A DNA stretch of 64,000 bases from Candidatus Omnitrophota bacterium (GCA_042570265.1 JBHPGU010000005.1:228-64227); one strand, 5' to 3'. Shown: positions 44,245-49,287, counted from the first letter of the stretch. The notes: generated by a model from the sequence alone, not told the origin. Made by a program: numbers and translations.

Positions 44245-44339
44245 TAAGAACGCTTTTATTTGTTAACTTACGACTAATAACTAACAACTAACGACTAGAT
44301 CAATTCCCCTGTAGCTCAGTTGGTAGAGCGGGTGGCTGT

Positions 44340-44880
44340 GCGCGAGCGAAGCAAGCGCAAACAATTGCTTCGCAGTATGAAGAAAGGAGGTGACAGGTTG
44401 GCAAAAGTCGAACAGCGCAAATATAGCGATAGACGCCAATACCTTATTAAGGCGGTTCATAAAAGGCGTAAAAAAATACGTCAAATGGCTGTGGAATATA
44501 AGGGCGGATGTTGTGAGCAATGTAGTTATGATCGTTGTGTTGAAGCGCTTGAGTTTCATCATTGTGACTCTTCTCGCAAAGACTTCAGTATATCTCAAAA
44601 GGGATATACGCGGAGTTGGAAGAGAGTAAGAATGGAACTTGATAAATGCAAAATACTATGTGCCAATTGTCACCGAGAACTCCATGCTAAGTTAGCAGCC
44701 TCTAGCGGTAACGCTAGAGTGAAAAGTGGGCTAATTCAGGGAAACCGTAACGTAAAGCCGACGGCAATCCTGAGCTATTTGCCAAATATTATGGCAGAGA
44801 GTGCAGAGACTTTACACCCACCATCCCAGATTTTGGGATGAAGAGAAAGTCCGACTCTTAAGGAAACTTAAGTCAGATCG
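44340..44880 (+). ncRNA. Group I (IC3-like) self-splicing intron
   Basis: The 5' exon ends in U and the intron ends in G. Core elements: P2 hairpin CTCTAGCG-GTAA-CGCTAGAG (44700-44719); P3 GTGGG (44726-30)/CCCAC (44817-21); P4 TCAGGG (44736-41)/TCCTGA (44768-73); GGGAAACC; P6 TGCCA/TGGCA (44780-96); GTGCAGAGACT (44801-11); P8 CATCCCA/TGGGATG (44822-40); P9 CTTAAG-GAAA-CTTAAG (44857-72). Confidence 0.8.
44377..44841 (+). CDS. Intron-encoded HNH homing endonuclease
   Basis: HNH/zinc motif: GGCCEQCSY...LEFHHCDSSRKDFSIS...KCKILCANCHRELH. In-frame start candidates are ATG 44377 and TTG 44398; the latter follows AAAGGAGGTG. The last ~50 codons run through the ribozyme core. Confidence 0.8.
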   Translation: MKKGGDRLAKVEQRKYSDRRQYLIKAVHKRRKKIRQMAVEYKGGCCEQCSYDRCVEALEFHHCDSSRKDFSISQKGYTRSWKRVRMELDKCKILCANCHRELHAKLAASSGNARVKSGLIQGNRNVKPTAILSYLPNIMAESAETLHPPSQILG

Positions 44881-44929
44881 TAACCACCATGTCCGAGGTT
44901 CGAGTCCTCGCGGGGGAGTGAAATTTCAT

Positions 44930-44965
44930 AACCCTCTGCAATGAAATATGTTGTGGAGGGTTTTT
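44930..44965 (+). terminator. Terminator-like hairpin after tRNA-Asn
   Basis: AACCCTC ... GAGGGTT stem (7 bp, 19-nt loop) followed by TTT. Confidence 0.4.
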
Positions 44966-45060
44966 GATTTTAGTTTTCGAACTAAGTGATTTTAAACTTA
45001 TTTGGTGGTATACTGGTAATAAAGAAAGATGATGTTATTGAATAAGGTTGGTTATTTATT

Positions 45061-46755
45061 ATGATTAAAGATATTAAAATTAAAAAGTGGTTTGAGAAGA
45101 ATAAGAGCGATAAAAGAAATCAAATCGCCAAGATACTAGGTATAGAGTATGCTCACATAAAGTTAACAAATAAGGATGACCTTTATCTAACAAGTCAAGG
45201 CTTGCCGTTTATTGAAAATTTAAAACCTGAGAATTATTGGACAGATGCAAATTGGTTTAACAAAAATTCTAAAAGGCTATTAGGAACAGGTTGTGTTTAC
45301 AAAATTAGGACAAAAAGAGTAAATGGTAAATACAAAGATATTGTAATAAAGTGGAATCGCATGGGACAGAATATTCCTGGTGAAGATGATTATGAGGAAT
45401 TAATGGATGCGGAATTTAATAGTCCCTTTGAGGAGTTCTCTTTAGTTGCGGGATTAAGGAATGCTGTGTTGGAGTCTTCCTTTGAGATAACTATACAAAA
45501 GCCACTGGCGATATATGTTCCTTCCGAATCTGTGGAAATATGGCAAAGCGGAAGAAAAGAATATAAGATGCAATATAAAATTGATTCACACAAAGATATT
45601 GTATTAGATATGCATCGTTCATACGCCGTTATTTACGAGTGGATTGAAGGGATAGATGCGGTAGAGGCCTATGATAAACACATAATAGATAAAAAGCACA
45701 TGAGGAAGCTTACGCTTGATGCTGATAAGAAGATAAAAAAGAAGGGTTTTGTGGTAAGGGATAATAAGCCTCATCACATCATTGTCAGACCTAAAAAAGA
45801 GAAAGAACTGGTAAGGGATGAAGAAGGGAAGGTTCTTTATGGGTTAATTGATTTTGAGTTGCTTGAAAGAACTCCTCAAAGAGAAAAAACAGCTAAAAAG
45901 GATAAGCGTGCAGATTATTTAAAAAGGCAAAGAGATAGATTTGTCATTGGTGATTCTAATGAGTTTCATCCGCACTTACATCACGTAAACTTTTTAGATG
46001 TGGAATATGTTTATGGCAATGTAGAGAGCACAAAAGGAAGGCTATGGGTAGTAGGCAAAGACCCATATTTATTTGATTATTTTTTACCAGAGCGATGGGA
46101 GAAAATTACTAAAACCAAGATTTCTGTATTCAACGATATGTATTACACAGTATCTAAGGATAATATACATCTTGCTTGGAAAGTCTCTAAAGTTGGATTG
46201 AAGCCCGACATGGACCCTTATAAAGAAGATGAAAAGAGAATATTAGAATATGGTTTCAATAGCCCATTTGAAGAAGTCGCTATCGCAGTTGAGCTCAGTC
46301 GCAAAGGCATACCTACTATTTATCCCAGGGCAATATACATGAGTTCAAATAAAACAAAAATACCAGATAAACTTTCGGATAAATCACGATATGAGACGCA
46401 TAAATCTTTTGCCACTCCTGATGGAATAGCCTTCTTAAAAAAGAATCAAGATTATATAAGTATTTGGGGCTATTGGAATGGTCCTGACGAAAAACTTGCT
46501 GCTAAGGACAGTGATTATTATGAAGGAATTGATACGCTACGTGCATTTAAAGAAGGGATTATCACTGAAAAGCAATATTTTGATTTATTGCAGATAGCAA
46601 AAGAGAGTTTATTCCAAGCAGGATTTGAAGATTTGAACTTTAGAGGGAATCATATATTGATTTCATTCGATAGTAAAAAGAATTTAATTATAAGTGATGA
46701 TGGCATCCCTGAAGTAAGGATATGTAATTTTGAATCTTTGAAGAAGATTAAATAA
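45061..46755 (+). CDS. Tandem protein-kinase-like protein (Kdo/WaaP/RIO-like kinase domain plus degenerate second copy)
   Basis: Half 1: DIVIKWNR (beta3 Lys), FNSPFEEFSLVAGLR (alphaC Glu), VVRDNKPHHIIV (catalytic loop), GLIDFELLE (DFG-like). Half 2 repeats the fold (WKVSKVG, FNSPFEEVAIAVELSRKGIPT, EDLNFRGNHILI), but ICNFESL replaces the metal-binding Asp. Confidence 0.6.
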   Translation: MIKDIKIKKWFEKNKSDKRNQIAKILGIEYAHIKLTNKDDLYLTSQGLPFIENLKPENYWTDANWFNKNSKRLLGTGCVYKIRTKRVNGKYKDIVIKWNRMGQNIPGEDDYEELMDAEFNSPFEEFSLVAGLRNAVLESSFEITIQKPLAIYVPSESVEIWQSGRKEYKMQYKIDSHKDIVLDMHRSYAVIYEWIEGIDAVEAYDKHIIDKKHMRKLTLDADKKIKKKGFVVRDNKPHHIIVRPKKEKELVRDEEGKVLYGLIDFELLERTPQREKTAKKDKRADYLKRQRDRFVIGDSNEFHPHLHHVNFLDVEYVYGNVESTKGRLWVVGKDPYLFDYFLPERWEKITKTKISVFNDMYYTVSKDNIHLAWKVSKVGLKPDMDPYKEDEKRILEYGFNSPFEEVAIAVELSRKGIPTIYPRAIYMSSNKTKIPDKLSDKSRYETHKSFATPDGIAFLKKNQDYISIWGYWNGPDEKLAAKDSDYYEGIDTLRAFKEGIITEKQYFDLLQIAKESLFQAGFEDLNFRGNHILISFDSKKNLIISDDGIPEVRICNFESLKKIK

Positions 46756-46876
46756 TAGTTCTCCCAATAGGGTGAGGGTGACATTCAGTATACAAGTTCT
46801 TTATATAATTTGTTCGCTTCTTCCGTAAGGCAATATGCCTTAAACTCCTCCAAAAAGTTGCGGAAATCGTAGTCTT

Positions 46877-46890
46877 GGGGGAGCCAGTTT
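46877..46890 (+). repeat. Decayed copy of the tRNA-Asn acceptor 3' end plus CCA (att remnant)
   Basis: GGGGGAGCCAGTTT is identical to 48448-48461. The preceding AGTCTT resembles the AGTCCTCGC of the T arm. Confidence 0.55.
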
Positions 46891-46920
46891 CCTCTCTCTA
46901 ATTATCCGTCGAGAGAGGCC

Positions 46921-46957
46921 AAAAGCTCTGATTGATAGATTCAATCAGAGCTTTTTT
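46921..46957 (+). terminator. Rho-independent terminator
   Basis: 15-bp perfect stem AAAAGCTCTGATTGA / TCAATCAGAGCTTTT, 5-nt loop, T-run. Confidence 0.8.
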
Positions 46958-47252
46958 ATACCTTTAGGTTTTAAAGAGTTAGGGTATTATTTCTTGTTAG
47001 ACTACGGATTTAATTTTAATAATTGATCAACCTGTACAACATCTCAAAGAGCAGGTTAGAATTTCGTTTCATTCCTTGCAATGTATCTCTAAAATGGCTC
47101 TTATATATTGGTTCGTATATAATGAAATATCTACGAGATTATTCAATATTTGGCTCATTTTTCGGGCATTATATAAGAAATTGATGAGACCTTTTTCTAA
47201 TTATTGGGGAGGTTTTTCATGACTCCATTTTGTAAAAAGAGTAAAAAGCGTG

Positions 47253-47331
47253 AGTTAACCAACAAAAGTTAATATTCTATATATTGTTGGTTAACTTATT
47301 CCTTGACTTTTATTAACCAACAACGTATATT
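47253..47331 (+). promoter_or_regulatory. Promoter with repeated operator-like sites
   Basis: 13-bp inverted repeat AGTTAACCAACAA (47253-65) / TTGTTGGTTAACT (47284-96). A third copy, TTAACCAACAA (47313-23), sits inside the spacer of TTGACT (47303-08)-17 nt-TATATT (47326-31). GGTTAACT recurs next to the RBS. Confidence 0.55.
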
Positions 47332-47364
47332 ATTAGTATATGTGTAGGTTAACTTGGAGGAAAT

Positions 47365-47685
47365 ATGAAAGGTGTCATTAAGGGGGTTTTAGCTGAAGAG
47401 TTGCAAAATTCTCTACGTATGAAGAAAGAATATAAATTGGCTCTTGGTAAGCTTCCCAAGGGGTGCTTATCGCTAAAGAAGATAAAAGGGCATAAGTATT
47501 ACTATCTGGTAAAGAGAGAAAAAGGAAAGCTAAAATATATTTATAAAGGGCAACTATCAGAAGATCAAATAAAAAAGTACAAAGAAATAAAAAATTATAG
47601 GGCTCAGTACCGTAAGTCATTATCAAAGTTAAAAAAACAAATTAAATTCTTAAGGAGTTCTTTACGTGGAAAAGCAGCAGTATGA
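47365..47685 (+). CDS. Small Lys-rich protein, putative antitoxin/regulator partner
   Basis: 106-aa ORF with a GGAGG RBS. Overlaps the downstream gene by 20 nt. I recognise no motif. Confidence 0.5.
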   Translation: MKGVIKGVLAEELQNSLRMKKEYKLALGKLPKGCLSLKKIKGHKYYYLVKREKGKLKYIYKGQLSEDQIKKYKEIKNYRAQYRKSLSKLKKQIKFLRSSLRGKAAV

Positions 47686-48352
47686 GTTGTGTGTTGAGGT
47701 TTTGCGTAGATTAGATAAAGCAGGGGTGTTAAAAAGCCTTATCTTAGTAGGGAGTTGGTGTATGCCTTTTTATGAGGATTACTTTAAGACTGTTACATAT
47801 GGATTGTCCATAAGGACAAGAGATGTCGATTTTATGGTCCCCGGACCGATACGAGTTAAGACGAATGTTGACGTAGTAGAACTATTAAAAGATTTAGGCT
47901 TCGTGACAGGGTTTCGAGGTAGAGAAGGATATATCAGACTTGAGCATCCGGAGTTGGCTATAGAGTTTTTGGTTCATGAAAAGGGGCGCGGCTCAAATAA
48001 GCCCCATTCTTTAAGAGAATTAGGCATCAATGCTCAGCCGCTAAGGTATTTAAACTTGCTTACGAAGGATATAATTCATGCCGAAATCGAAGGGGTCAAA
48101 GTTGCTTTGCCGCATCCGGTTATTTTTGCTTTTCATAAACTAATAGTTGCCCAGATCAGAAAAGAAAAGCATAAAAAAATCAAAGATGAGGCAGACGCAA
48201 GAAAGGTGCTAAAGGCGTTATTAGATAAAGGGGAATCGGCAATTATTAAGATGCAATTTAGTTCTATGCTTCCAAAGTGGCAGAAAAAGGTTCTCAGGGG
48301 CCTAAATGAGATAGAGGAATCCGAGCTTTTAAATTTGCTGTCAGGGCGGTAG
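47666..48352 (+). CDS. Nucleotidyltransferase-fold protein (AbiEii/MNT-like), putative toxin
   Basis: LILVGSWCMPFY...IRTRDVDFMV fits the G-S ... D-x-D pattern of the minimal NTase fold. 228 aa. GTG start inside the upstream gene. Confidence 0.45.
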   Translation: MEKQQYELCVEVLRRLDKAGVLKSLILVGSWCMPFYEDYFKTVTYGLSIRTRDVDFMVPGPIRVKTNVDVVELLKDLGFVTGFRGREGYIRLEHPELAIEFLVHEKGRGSNKPHSLRELGINAQPLRYLNLLTKDIIHAEIEGVKVALPHPVIFAFHKLIVAQIRKEKHKKIKDEADARKVLKALLDKGESAIIKMQFSSMLPKWQKKVLRGLNEIEESELLNLLSGR

Positions 48353-48433
48353 ATTAAGAAGGATTAAGCTTGGTTAAGATGGATTAAGTTTAATTAAGGT
48401 TGGAGCGATAAATAAGAACAGGATTAAGTATTA

Positions 48434-48457
48434 GTTCGAGTCCTCGCGGGGGAGCCA
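48434..48457 (+). repeat. Direct repeat of the tRNA-Asn 3' end including CCA (displaced original 3' end / attR)
   Basis: GTTCGAGTCCTCGCGGGGGAG is 21/21 identical to 44898-44918. Here it is followed by CCA, whereas the resident tRNA is followed by TGA. Confidence 0.8.
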
Positions 48458-48491
48458 GTTTAATAGCTCGAACTCACGTTCGAGATAAGGC

Positions 48492-48529
48492 AAAAGCCCC
48501 AGTTATGAAACAGTAACTGGGGCTTTTTT
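48492..48529 (+). terminator. Rho-independent terminator
   Basis: 14-bp perfect stem AAAAGCCCCAGTTA / TAACTGGGGCTTTT, 8-nt loop, T-run. Confidence 0.85.
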
Positions 48530-48904
48530 ATGTCTTGTAAAGGCAAATGGTTAGAGAGTTAGTTTTGACGAAACTCACCTGTTAAATCCCAAACGTACAG
48601 ATATGACCTAATCCTTTTAATACTAATGGGTAGAATCAAGAAACGATCTATCTCTCTATCTCTGAATTGGCCACTATTTAATCGATCGTATTTAATCGCT
48701 ATATTGGCAAGATACATCAGGAATTATTAATTATTTCCCTGCCGTTGGTGATCGATTAAATGGAAATGAAAGGGAAGCTAGGAAGAATTATCTCTCTTTA
48801 TCTCTAAAATCTTGGTTGTTTACGCATTTGATTTTCTAATTGTAAACGAATTGCAATTATGTATCATAGATGGTGGAGAGTAAGGAACTCTAAGGCTATG
48901 TTTT

Positions 48905-49108
48905 ATGGATAAATTATTAACACCCCAACAGCTAAGCGAGCTACTGCAAGTTAAGCCTTCAACGGTTTATAAGTGGACGCACTATCGCTATATTCCTTAT
49001 GTGAAATTAGGGACTGCAATAAGATTTAGAGCAGCAAAGATAGAGGAATGGATTAAGAAAAGAGAAAAGAGGGGTAGGCACTCCTACAAAATACCTTTTA
49101 AGTTATAA
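48905..49108 (+). CDS. Excisionase-family (MerR-like) helix-turn-helix DNA-binding protein
   Basis: LLTPQQLSELLQVKPSTVYKWTHYRYIPYVKLGTAIRFRAAKIEEWI is the classic Xis/AlpA-type HTH_17 pattern. 67 aa. Confidence 0.7.
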   Translation: MDKLLTPQQLSELLQVKPSTVYKWTHYRYIPYVKLGTAIRFRAAKIEEWIKKREKRGRHSYKIPFKL

Positions 49109-49287
49109 AAATAAAACTTGACTAACCTAAAGGATAATGTTATCCTTTAATTGACAATGAAGTAAAGCAAGGCAATGAAGCCCCAAAGAGATTTGGGGCA
49201 TTTTCATTTATAGGGGCAAAGAAGCCCTTTTTTAGAGCAGAGTCTGCTTTTTAAAAAAGGGCTTTTTCTTTGAGGTGGTCGTAAGAT

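Follow-up and report, generated by a model that had tools for sequence, protein, structure and literature searches.

The window, a stretch of 64,000 nucleotides from an uncultured Omnitrophota bacterium (genome G000), contains the sole asparagine tRNA gene of this organism, which is the host of the locus described here. The 5' exon of the tRNA-Asn(GTT) gene (44305-44339, plus strand), placed by alignment to the intron-less tRNA-Asn of G001 and G002, is separated from the 3' exon (44881-44918, plus strand) by a group I intron of 541 nt (44340-44880, plus strand), which contains an ORF for an HNH endonuclease. The Rfam model Intron_gpI (RF00028) matches at 44665-44873 with 79.4 bits against a threshold of 50, and the ORF matches PHROG HNH families (5e-27). 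Joining positions 44339 and 44881 gives a tRNA-Asn that is accepted by ARAGORN and agrees with the intron-less orthologues; the same join is present in contigs of run X1. Intron and ORF were also found in the relatives L010, L018, L021, L024, L054 and L057. The Rfam match and the spliced tRNA support the view of the initial annotation that this tRNA hosts a group I intron.

The last 21 nt of the 3' exon (44898-44918), corresponding to G53 to G73 of the tRNA, are the resident copy of a repeat and the putative B half-site. Exact copies of this sequence, GTTCGAGTCCTCGCGGGGGAG, lie at 44898-44918 and 48434-48454 with 0 mismatches, and these two are the only ones both in the window and in the whole MAG of 1.79 Mb, in agreement with the perfect repeat first reported. 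No further match with up to three mismatches was found in the window, nor in 100 shuffles. The distal copy (48434-48457, plus strand, exact match) consists of the last 21 nt of the tRNA and CCA; the upstream tRNA body is absent. As had been noticed, TGA stands behind the resident copy and CCA, in full CCAGTTT, behind the distal one. CCA is encoded after tRNA-Asn in every relative examined, and TGA-type trailers were found at other cassette junctions. Since TGA stands where all relatives examined encode CCA, sequence comparison supports a non-ancestral trailer of the resident tRNA. The insert is thus bounded by an exact 21-nt direct repeat of the tRNA 3' end, as is characteristic of genomic islands at tRNA ends.

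A third, intermediate site at 46877-46890 (plus strand) consists of the core GGGGGAG (46877-46883) and CCAGTTT. Its sequence, GGGGGAGCCAGTTT, is identical to 48448-48461, and the 50-nt downstream flanks of the two sites are 74% alike. This site is real and does share the post-CCA nucleotides with the distal copy. Its initial designation as a decayed tRNA end was rejected: to the left of GGGGGAG only 13 of 22 positions match the tRNA, compared with 21 of 22 that match a dispersed repeat family. Dispersal of the repeat through the genome had been named as grounds for giving up an origin by integration; this applies in part, as the 21-mer is not dispersed but the family of the 14-mer is.

Unit A (44919-46883) is a discrete cassette. 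Its left end, L_A (44919-45060, plus strand), has TGA for CCA, a terminator hairpin at 44930-44962 (terminator scan) and a promoter-like region, and is about 80% alike to the L1 modules at cassette junctions on contigs C42 and C35. The following gene (45061-46755, plus strand) encodes a protein of 564 amino acids for which no Pfam, NCBIfam, PADLOC or PHROG match was obtained, and which has more than 2,400 homologues. From an AF2 model (pLDDT 88), whose best Foldseek matches in the PDB are all protein kinases (E about 1e-4 to 1e-3), the protein is predicted to have a tandem protein-kinase-like fold. The gene was absent from all 40 relatives searched. The cassette recurs in a related MAG (L039, 7862-9700) at 83% nucleotide identity, where it sits in another array context; the homology begins at 44924, 5 nt past the tRNA end (G73). 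The right end, R_A (46785-46886), encodes on the minus strand WLPQDYDFRNFLEEFKAYCLTEEANKLYKELVY followed by a stop codon. This is the severed C-terminus of a gene for a large serine recombinase (LSR), and the module was read as the P-arm of an LSR attP. The translation, which includes WLPQDYDFRNFLEEF, has homologues in other R modules and at the C-terminal ends of the full-length LSRs P0176, P0131, P0231 and P0169; a 22-mer nearly identical to that of R_A lies at about position 440 of C42. Severed 3' codons of a recombinase beside the core, at the far end of the insert, are also a mark of the DsiB islands discussed below. Since the left and right ends of unit A have no sequence in common but GGGGGAG, the crossover would have taken place within this core. 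With attL- and attR-type flanking sites and neither recombination nor transfer genes, unit A has the anatomy of a cis-mobilizable element (CIME).

Unit B (46884-48433) comprises the M1 leader, a gene pair and the GGATTAAG repeats. M1 (46884-47200, plus strand), a trailer module recognized by an inverted repeat and by its identity to modules of G001, contains a hairpin, a terminator (46921-46955) and a conserved promoter-like stretch; it is 69-71% identical to G001:C43 13344-13657, directly behind an LSR element there, and to G001:C49. At 47253-47354 a 42-nt imperfect inverted repeat with the TTAACCAAC motif surrounds the best promoter match (TTGACT-17-TATATT) and is probably the operator of the operon behind it. 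This operon consists of a 106-aa protein without family match (47365-47685, plus strand), whose gene overlaps the start of the second, and a nucleotidyltransferase (47666-48352, plus strand) of Pfam family NTP_transf_8 (PF12281; 87.8 bits, cut-off 26.3). The nucleotidyltransferase is patchily distributed (9 of 40 relatives searched, none within the genus or family), and the 106-aa partner is kept beside it in seven relatives at 35-72% identity. A Pfam match above cut-off and a conserved adjoining partner mark a PF12281 two-gene module, which may be toxin-antitoxin-like; PADLOC gave no match for it. The cargo initially assigned, a kinase-like gene in the first island and nucleotidyltransferase in the second, was thus found, except that the supposed nucleotidyltransferase pair is one such enzyme and its 106-aa partner. 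Behind the operon, at 48361-48428 (plus strand), lie three exact copies of GGATTAAG, 20 and 40 nt apart, together with variants. The motif occurs 10 times in the window versus 4 expected, three of them within 68 nt, and these copies are possibly protein-binding (arm-type) repeats.

Behind the distal tRNA end lies M2 (48458-48810, plus strand), a second trailer module in diverged form, which contains a terminator (48492-48527); its far portion (48751-48806) shares 80% identity with G001:C49. The gene for an excisionase-family HTH protein of 67 amino acids follows at 48905-49108 (plus strand), with matches to TIGR01764 (45.3 bits, cut-off 28.8), Pfam HTH_17 and PHROG 66 (excisionase); G002 and G003 showed no such gene next to their sigma-like gene. 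The conserved chromosomal block begins with the promoter and structured leader (49113-49287, plus strand) of a sigma/LuxR-like gene, continues with amtB, glnB and glnA, and is syntenic from 49113 onward in G002 and G003. The island had been drawn from 44898 to 48461; the variable stretch in fact reaches about 49112 and takes in the excisionase-family gene. The region has a G+C content of 0.30-0.36, its surroundings one of 0.40-0.45. Sequence composition, uniqueness of the repeat and patchiness of the cargo support the accessory nature of the DNA between the repeat copies, and hence the original picture of accessory segments bounded by copies of a tRNA 3' end.

On sequence evidence the intermediate site is identified as the P-arm (R module) of an LSR attP, a conserved multi-copy family with at least 12 copies in this genome and five in the sister species G001. 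The minus strands of these modules encode WLP(F/Q)(V/D)(D/Y)DFR(T/N)FL...LTEE..KL.KELV followed by a stop codon; that of the intermediate site reads as a severed LSR tail, WLPxxDDFRTFL. The WLP motif ends a minority of the full-length LSR homologues, and most others close with a tail read from tRNA sequence, for example WLPREDSNLG or DSNQRP. Several R tails are interrupted by stops or inserted hairpins. Identical 21-mers, AAAGTCGTCTACGAAGGGGAG, occur three times in G000 and three times in G001, though orthologous genes are only 72-91% identical. Cassette arrays similar to unit A are present on contigs C42, C35 and C46; the neighbours of the cassettes differ between the two genomes, and the breakpoints are marked by cores. 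On C42, junction modules stand between housekeeping-looking genes (RluA, hydrolase). In L038 the genes for an Na/H exchanger and the 564-aa protein adjoin without a junction, and in L039 a junction lies between them. Contigs in the genus do break at the core.

In line with the initial statement that neither segment has an integrase, domain searches with PF00589, PF00239 and PF07508 revealed no tyrosine or serine recombinase in the region or linked to it, and no recombinase gene stands at an end of the insert. A tblastn search with seven LSRs as queries was negative. Because no LSR was found in this 74%-complete assembly, units A and B are either fixed or movable solely in trans. Matches to PF00589 are confined to contigs C1, C2, C6 and C15, outside the locus and the array contigs, and none of these matches carries the 21-mer; the full-length proteins on C2 and C6 are of XerC/D size. 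The tyrosine integrase with a matching att core that had been proposed as a search target thus has no relevant candidate in the genome, and no attP copy of the 21-mer was found elsewhere. No excised circle was observed, and an exact empty site was not found in relatives: the site in G001 holds an LSR element, the tRNA of G002 is inverted, and metagenome matches are distant.

An LSR (Resolvase, Recombinase and Zn ribbon domains) abutting the RNA gene and reading into it is absent from the window; at the orthologous locus G001 has one, as do the metagenome contigs L052/L055 and L054/L057. In G001, of the same genus, the 500-aa protein overlaps the tRNA-Asn 3' end, and its element of 5.7 kb ends in GGGGAGCCAATTA, followed by the M1 orthologue. 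The element of L057 carries a tyrosine recombinase as well. A recombinase-less array in L056 contains a Fic gene, an addiction-module (toxin-antitoxin) antidote gene and an ankyrin-repeat gene. Six LSR genes were found in G001, where one contig stops exactly at ...NWLP, the core. The proposed integration site is therefore a recurrent hot spot in relatives. The class of recombinase was initially taken to be tyrosine; the LSR tail at the end of unit A and the LSRs abutting the tRNA in relatives indicate the serine class. Since the intermediate site encodes an LSR tail, the likely enzyme is an LSR with attP inside its own gene and not a tyrosine integrase, and the units were most likely placed by LSRs like those at the same site in sister genomes.

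With a probability of about two in three, the 4.2 kb between 44918 and about 49113 are an accretion array of recombinase-less units built by LSRs at the last bases of the tRNA. What was shown directly is the repeats, that the genes are accessory, the homology of the tail, that LSRs occupy the same site in relatives and that the cassette boundary falls at the core; which enzyme acted, in which order the units arrived and whether they can still move is inferred. The enzymes would belong to an LSR clade whose gene adjoins the tRNA and reads into it. Their attP would lie inside the 3' coding end of the LSR gene, so that integration would sever the tail codons, which would then stand at the distal end of the inserted DNA. 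Exactly this anatomy, without the recombinase body, is seen in unit A, in the order tRNA B half-site, GGGGGAG, TGA with terminator/promoter module, kinase-fold gene, LSR tail, GGGGGAG, and CCAGTTT with M1. Crossover in GGGGGAG would have left the tRNA with the trailer of the cassette (TGA, no CCA). On the simplest reading, the distal copy (21 nt and CCA, then M2) would be the original tRNA end, displaced first by unit B; unit A would later have inserted at the regenerated tRNA end. Several points speak against this scheme, among them the lack of a recombinase in window and assembly, the missing empty site and excised circle, and the interrupted R tails. The left half of the distal junction is tRNA-like and not R-type, and another enzyme, even a tyrosine integrase, could have made it; repeated accretion needs recombination of attP x attL, a reaction outside the standard chemistry of LSRs.

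It is unlikely that the locus arose instead from one or two P4/lambda-type elements that integrated into tRNA-Asn at its T-loop-to-3'-end sublocation, with a duplication of 21-28 nt, and whose tyrosine integrase genes disappeared afterwards, the R-type site being unrelated or secondary. Perfect identity over 21 nt (28 nt with CCAGTTT) is typical of tyrosine-integrase att cores at tRNAs, and the repeat here would have measured 28 nt, CCAGTTT included, before unit A arrived. The phased GGATTAAG repeats adjoin the distal copy like arm-type sites, the excisionase-family gene lies 450 nt downstream, L057 has its tyrosine recombinase, and C15 carries a tyrosine integrase fragment by tRNA-Val, close to a further tRNA-Asn-like copy. 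However, all recombinase-bearing occupants found at this tRNA end have an LSR abutting the tRNA, the ends of unit A are LSR-type with a severed tail, and both the missing attP copy and the PF00589 matches on other contigs without the 21-mer argue against such integrases. The LSR DsiB likewise yields a 20-bp repeat at ssrA (PMC3146451).

The C42 junctions amid housekeeping-looking genes and the junction-less L038 suggest that the R-core-L junction could be a genus-specific self-spreading intergenic repeat, a REP/MITE-like terminator-promoter module, with loci shuffled by homologous recombination and no dedicated recombinase. The dispersal of the family, the extra inserted hairpins in many copies and the other hairpin-repeat families in the genome point in the same direction. 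We consider this somewhat less probable still: at tRNA-Asn the module halves are split round a gene (L at 44919, R at 46785-46883) and lie between the tRNA and M1, an arrangement proper to an integrated circle and not to an inserted repeat. Genuine LSR genes have C-terminal codons homologous to the R half, LSR-bearing elements of G001 and L057 have it as their right end, and the breakpoints fall exactly at the 7-nt core. An assembly artefact, either a chimeric contig or repeats collapsed or mis-joined at tRNA-like sequences, is conceivable in a 74%-complete MAG of 78 contigs from a genus with contig breaks at the core, but highly improbable for a region internal to a 75.7-kb contig, with both flanks syntenic in relatives and the same architecture independently present in G001, L056 and L057.

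The ssrA-specific islands of Dehalococcoides, which use the large serine recombinase DsiB (McMurdie et al. 2011, PMC3146451), are the closest described system. Both have an LSR that adjoins attL, is encoded on the reverse strand and reaches over the 3' end of a stable-RNA gene (here in relatives), a direct repeat of about 20 bp of the RNA 3' end at each boundary, multiple islands in tandem, islands without integration module, read there as cis-mobilizable elements, and a recombinase stop codon set by the sequence across the junction (PMC3146451). The present locus differs in its target, tRNA-Asn and not ssrA, in units that measure 1.5-2 kb, carry one or two genes and lack an integration module entirely, in a unit A that has merely a 7-nt core in common with the tRNA, in a junction family that also occurs in arrays off the RNA gene (C42, C35, C46), and in a recombinase absent from the assembly.

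CIMEs and ICE/IME accretion arrays, for example the ICESt1/ICESt3 family of Streptococcus thermophilus, depend on tyrosine integrases at the 3' end of fda. They also contain att-flanked segments without recombination and transfer genes, accreted site-specifically in tandem, which the recombinase of a neighbour could mobilise; the ends here are LSR-type instead, each unit retaining a piece of a severed recombinase gene. In the SCCmec/SCC composite islands and the Enterococcus cassette chromosome, Ccr LSRs act at rlmH/orfX and likewise place cassettes one behind another at the 3' end of an essential gene, with short boundary repeats. The differing features of SCCmec/SCC are the protein-gene target, cassettes of tens of kb, the usual presence of ccrAB or ccrC, and an attP outside the recombinase ORF.

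Integrons share the tiny, mostly single-gene units with their own recombination sites, stacked by one fixed primary site, and the presence of the same cassette in different array contexts among related genomes. Unlike integrons, the locus has no IntI or other tyrosine recombinase (PF00589 search), its cassettes have their own terminator and promoter-like sequences, and its site encodes a recombinase tail; no attC-type R''/R' boxes were seen by eye, and the conserved sequence of the junction is different. It may nevertheless be suggested, tentatively and at less than even odds, that this clade of Omnitrophota possesses a counterpart of the integron based on serine recombinases, in which LSRs encoded elsewhere capture, excise and reshuffle cassettes in trans. 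No description of an integron-like LSR cassette system of this kind was found in the literature. The tRNA-Asn 3' end would be the primary site for one- or two-gene cassettes with their own promoter, the cassette end would consist of a P half-site of about 25 nt (the recombinase's tail codons) and the GGGGAG core, and whole arrays (C42, C35, C46) would have spread along the chromosome, capturing even housekeeping-type genes. In that case, units A and B would be live cassettes awaiting a recombinase, not dead remnants.

The 21-mer GTTCGAGTCCTCGCGGGGGAG is present at 44898-44918 and at 48434-48454, with no further match in the window at up to 3 mismatches and none in shuffled sequences. These are also the only two copies in the whole metagenome-assembled genome (MAG; 1.79 Mb, 78 contigs), so the perfect repeat of the tRNA-Asn end reported in the initial annotation is confirmed. 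At 44898-44918 the 21-mer forms the 3' terminus (G53 to G73) of tRNA-Asn(GTT). Of 42 tRNA genes in the assembly this is the only one for asparagine; ARAGORN missed it because it is split by a 541-nt group I intron (79.4 bits, Rfam), the ORF of which encodes an HNH endonuclease. With 44339 spliced to 44881, a tRNA-Asn results that has the layout of the intron-less genes of the same-genus sister (G001) and of a further relative (G002); a single tRNA does carry both a group I intron and integrated units, as had been proposed. The intron with its HNH ORF (44340-44880) occupies the same tRNA-Asn position in order- and class-level relatives (L010, L018, L021, L024, L054 and L057) and is absent from the closest relatives (G001 and G002); the intron itself has therefore been gained and lost.

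TGA comes after the resident tRNA end (44918) and CCAGTTT after the distal copy (48454), as described before, and the CCAGTTT-bearing 14-mer GGGGGAGCCAGTTT is found again at 46877-46890, so that the intermediate copy does share the letters after CCA with the distal one. CCA is encoded in every native tRNA-Asn examined, and trailers with TGA are likewise seen at junctions between cassettes, on contig C42 of this genome and in G001. The trailer of the resident tRNA therefore came from a cassette, in line with the earlier proposal that the element supplied a new tRNA 3' trailer. The similarity of the resident trailer to the native trailer of G002 (30/1000 shuffles) is too weak for an ancestral origin to be claimed. 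CCA is encoded in only about 15 of the remaining 41 tRNA genes, so its lack on tRNA-Asn is tolerable.

By the names of its nearest homologues, the genome belongs to Candidatus Omnitrophota. The G+C content is 0.30-0.36 at 44.9-47.6 kb versus 0.40-0.45 outside. None of 40 relatives, species representatives from the same genus, family, order or class, has the 564-aa gene of this region, and the NTase (PF12281), accompanied by its 106-aa partner, is present in 9/40, none of them of the genus or family. Synteny with G002 and the relative G003 (sigma/LuxR-like gene, amtB, glnB, glnA) is not regained before about 49113, and the variable stretch thus comprises 44919-49112. It includes a gene for a 67-aa excisionase-family HTH protein (48905-49108), overlooked in the initial annotation. 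A promoter (TTGACT-17-TATCCT) and a leader of ~170 nt with two hairpins lie at 49113-49287, upstream of the sigma/LuxR-like gene; this sequence is conserved in G002 and G003 despite differing upstream neighbours, and may represent a cis-regulatory leader of an undescribed kind.

In G001, whose tRNA-Asn has no intron, the gene of a 500-aa large serine recombinase (LSR) with Resolvase, Recombinase and Zn-ribbon domains runs on the opposite strand and overlaps the tRNA. The G001 element has a length of 5.7 kb and terminates at GGGGAGCCAATTA; the sequence after it is 71% identical to positions 46878-47128 of the window, referred to here as the trailer module M1 (compared with a shuffle control). 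Scanning metagenomes for the tRNA end with CCAGTTT behind it yielded eight contigs. L052/L055 and L054/L057 represent two distinct loci, in each of which a 505-517-aa LSR abuts the tRNA, and the 8.1-kb element of L057 terminates in GGGGAGCCA. L056 is an array without recombinase, in which island 1 holds a Fic gene and island 2 an addiction-module (toxin-antitoxin) antidote gene and an ankyrin-repeat gene, both delimited by tRNA-end copies, one long and one short. LSR genes number six in G001 (contigs C77, C43, C130, C104, C119 and C15) and zero in this assembly. No recombinase was found in unit A (44919-46883) or unit B (46884-48433), and the statement that neither segment encodes an integrase stands. 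At least one G001 contig ends exactly at ...NWLP, at the core of the junctions described below; repeats of this kind therefore fragment the assemblies of the genus.

The reading of the intermediate copy as a decayed tRNA end had to be abandoned: left of GGGGGAG it agrees with the tRNA in 13/22 positions, versus 21/22 with a copy on C42. The repeat family of which it is a member has the consensus CAAAAAAGTTCGAAAGTCGTCTACGAAGGGGAG; after this come CCA or TGA, a terminator hairpin and promoter-like sequence. At least 12 copies occur in this genome (6-7 on C42, 3-5 on C35, others on C46, C37 and C18) and 5 in G001, with essentially none in 38 further relatives. The 21 nt adjoining the core are identical in three copies per species (this genome and G001); orthologous genes diverge by 9-28%. 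The minus strands of the half-sites left of the core (R modules) translate as WLPQDYDFRNFLEEFKAYCLTEEANKLYKELVY in the window, SLPFVDDFRTFLLTEEVSKLDKELVC, WLPFVNEFRTALPEIPQEFLCHELLEMAI at the end of the G001 element, and similar peptides, each ending in a stop. The search with the G001 LSR gave over 380 homologues, of which the best 120 were inspected at the C-terminus. In most of them the tail is tRNA-encoded (e.g. WLPREDSNLGP, DSNQRP), and a minority read WLPxxD(D/E)FR(T/N)..., the same motif as in the R modules. This common motif identifies the module of the intermediate copy as the probable P arm of an attP located inside a recombinase gene. Integration would replace the last ~30 codons of the LSR gene with tRNA sequence, and the true tail would then stand at the distal boundary of the insert; the swap of recombinase ends is discussed in the same terms for the ssrA islands of Dehalococcoides (PMC3146451). 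The similarity of 46756-46876 to G001 DNA is not significant (64/1000 shuffles), the relationship being visible only as motif and peptide. The sole Rfam match of the middle junction, ncS01 (32 bits, threshold 58), was taken as chance.

The layout of unit A is tRNA, GGGGGAG, TGA with the terminator/promoter module L_A, the 564-aa gene, the tail module R_A, GGGGGAG, and CCAGTTT with M1. GGGGGAG is the only sequence common to both ends, from which we infer that crossover took place within it. Positions 44924-46760, starting 5 nt past G73, are 83% identical at the nucleotide level to 7862-9700 of L039, a locus from a related MAG. On L039 the order is Na/H-exchanger gene, R-type junction, cassette, further R module; the Na/H gene of this genome is located on C35, and an R junction comes after it. 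Unit A is a discrete unit, whose excised circle would carry the outward junction R_A-GGGGGAG-TGAAATTT. One single island of 3.5 kb is ruled out, as unit A possesses its own complete end pair.

The 564-aa protein (45061-46755) is a member of a highly conserved family with more than 2,400 full-length members and no Pfam model, with identities of 55-84% across Omnitrophota, Elusimicrobia and others. Protein kinases were the only PDB matches of its AF2 model (pLDDT 88), and weak ones (E 1e-4 to 1e-3); the protein appears to be a tandem of two protein-kinase-fold domains. Support for the label 'kinase-like' is thus confined to the level of the fold. The 564-aa and 106-aa proteins gave no match in PADLOC, NCBIfam or PHROGs, and a profile search of the cargo against PDB sequences was without result. 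In two related MAGs (loci L038 and L039) a Na+/H+ exchanger-CBS gene immediately precedes the 564-aa gene. Transfer of this gene between phyla was rejected, because the MAGs with the closest copies match the core genes of this genome as closely as G001 does; within the clade, the gene is an accessory one.

Unit B starts with M1, followed by a palindromic operator-like promoter and the 106-aa/NTase pair. The promoter of this operon is enclosed by a 42-nt imperfect palindrome based on TTAACCAAC (47253-47354), which looks like a candidate autoregulation operator in the style of toxin-antitoxin systems. Three exact, phased copies of GGATTAAG, 20 and 40 nt apart, lie together with variants at 48361-48428, immediately left of the distal tRNA-end copy. 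The right end of the unit is the perfect 21-mer with CCA, followed by M2, which is paralogous to M1 but diverged from it and has a terminator of its own. An excised circle of unit B would carry ...GGATTAAGTATTA-21-mer-CCAGTTT-M1. Integration of unit B would have displaced the original end (21-mer, CCA, M2) downstream, and unit A would then have integrated at the regenerated tRNA end. Two integrations, as initially annotated, are retained as the simplest history, with unit B before unit A; the accompanying view of the repeats is not, as the middle one is no tRNA end and the ends of unit A are of LSR type. For the 21-nt junction, an LSR and a tyrosine integrase would be equally suitable. Tyrosine-integrase islands are compatible with the perfect 21-nt identity, the arm-like GGATTAAG repeats and the excisionase-family gene, but 20-bp repeats are also produced by DsiB-type LSRs (PMC3146451).

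Outside the window, arrays are located at C42:250-7550, C35:1250-11800 and C46:1180-6000, where nearly every intergenic region (on C42 every one) is an R-core-L junction, consisting of an LSR tail module, GGGGAG, CCA or TGA, and a terminator with a promoter-like stretch. The array units contain 1-2 genes, including housekeeping-looking ones (RluA, MBL-rhodanese, trehalose-synthase-like). Differences in gene neighbours between this genome and G001 fall at cores. A cassette of a 221-aa and a 402-aa gene, 91% identical between the two, is preceded by a tail-type half-site on C42 here and by a tRNA-like one on C49 of G001. The arrays fit an integron-like, LSR-driven cassette system. A self-spreading intergenic repeat without a dedicated recombinase, acted upon by homologous recombination, fits less well, as it leaves unexplained the module halves flanking a gene at tRNA-Asn and the one module half that is built of recombinase codons. 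About 9.5 kb past the window end (C5:73557-74060), a tRNA-Asn-like end, GAGTCTTCGCGGGGGAGCCAGTTAATA (73922), closes a non-coding stretch of ~380 nt, which is conserved on C49 of G001 with a different cassette after it. C15:33829-36141 holds a decayed tRNA-Asn-like copy (GGTTTGAGTCCTCGCGGAGGGGAGTCA), a gene for a 538-aa membrane protein and a C-terminal tyrosine integrase fragment (121 aa) that abuts tRNA-Val; the locus looks like what remains of another, independent integration.

An exact empty site was found neither in G001, G002 and G003 nor in a metagenome pattern scan. The G001 site holds the LSR element, the G002 tRNA is inverted relative to recR, the genes upstream of the sigma-like gene differ in G002 and G003, and the scan returned only more distant tRNA-Asn loci. 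An exact-protein look-up with RecR matched no record. This strain was in none of the public sequencing runs (shares of at most 0.09); four marine runs contained only fragments of relatives, including an intron-less tRNA join, and one weak joint of an R tail to M2 (shorter side 29 letters) was given no weight.

Among described systems, the Dehalococcoides ssrA islands with DsiB (PMC3146451) are the nearest; functional parallels to the tRNA-Asn units exist in CIMEs, SCC-type accretion and integrons. A full-text literature search found no paper linking Omnitrophota to serine recombinases. As the window is without a recombinase, units A and B are classed as recombinase-less, CIME-like units that putatively belong to an LSR cassette system, a variant related to the DsiB islands. 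No circle, empty site or enzyme activity was seen for them, and they may be either fixed or mobile today. This account explains the loss of the encoded CCA from the sole tRNA-Asn gene, the coexistence of a group I intron and integrating elements within one essential gene, and the occurrence of an undescribed kinase-fold gene family at tRNA-Asn. LSRs are prized tools for genome engineering and, to our knowledge, have long been held to avoid tRNA genes. The LSRs of the present case, a whole clade, would target the terminal bases of a tRNA, have attP within their own gene and leave behind strings of tiny recombinase-less cassettes. The system would yield natural attB/attP pairs with ~25 nt per half-site and a defined 7-nt core. 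If the cassettes move in trans, they would represent a second bacterial route to collect and shuffle single genes, mechanistically unrelated to integrons and, if true, operating in a large uncultivated phylum.
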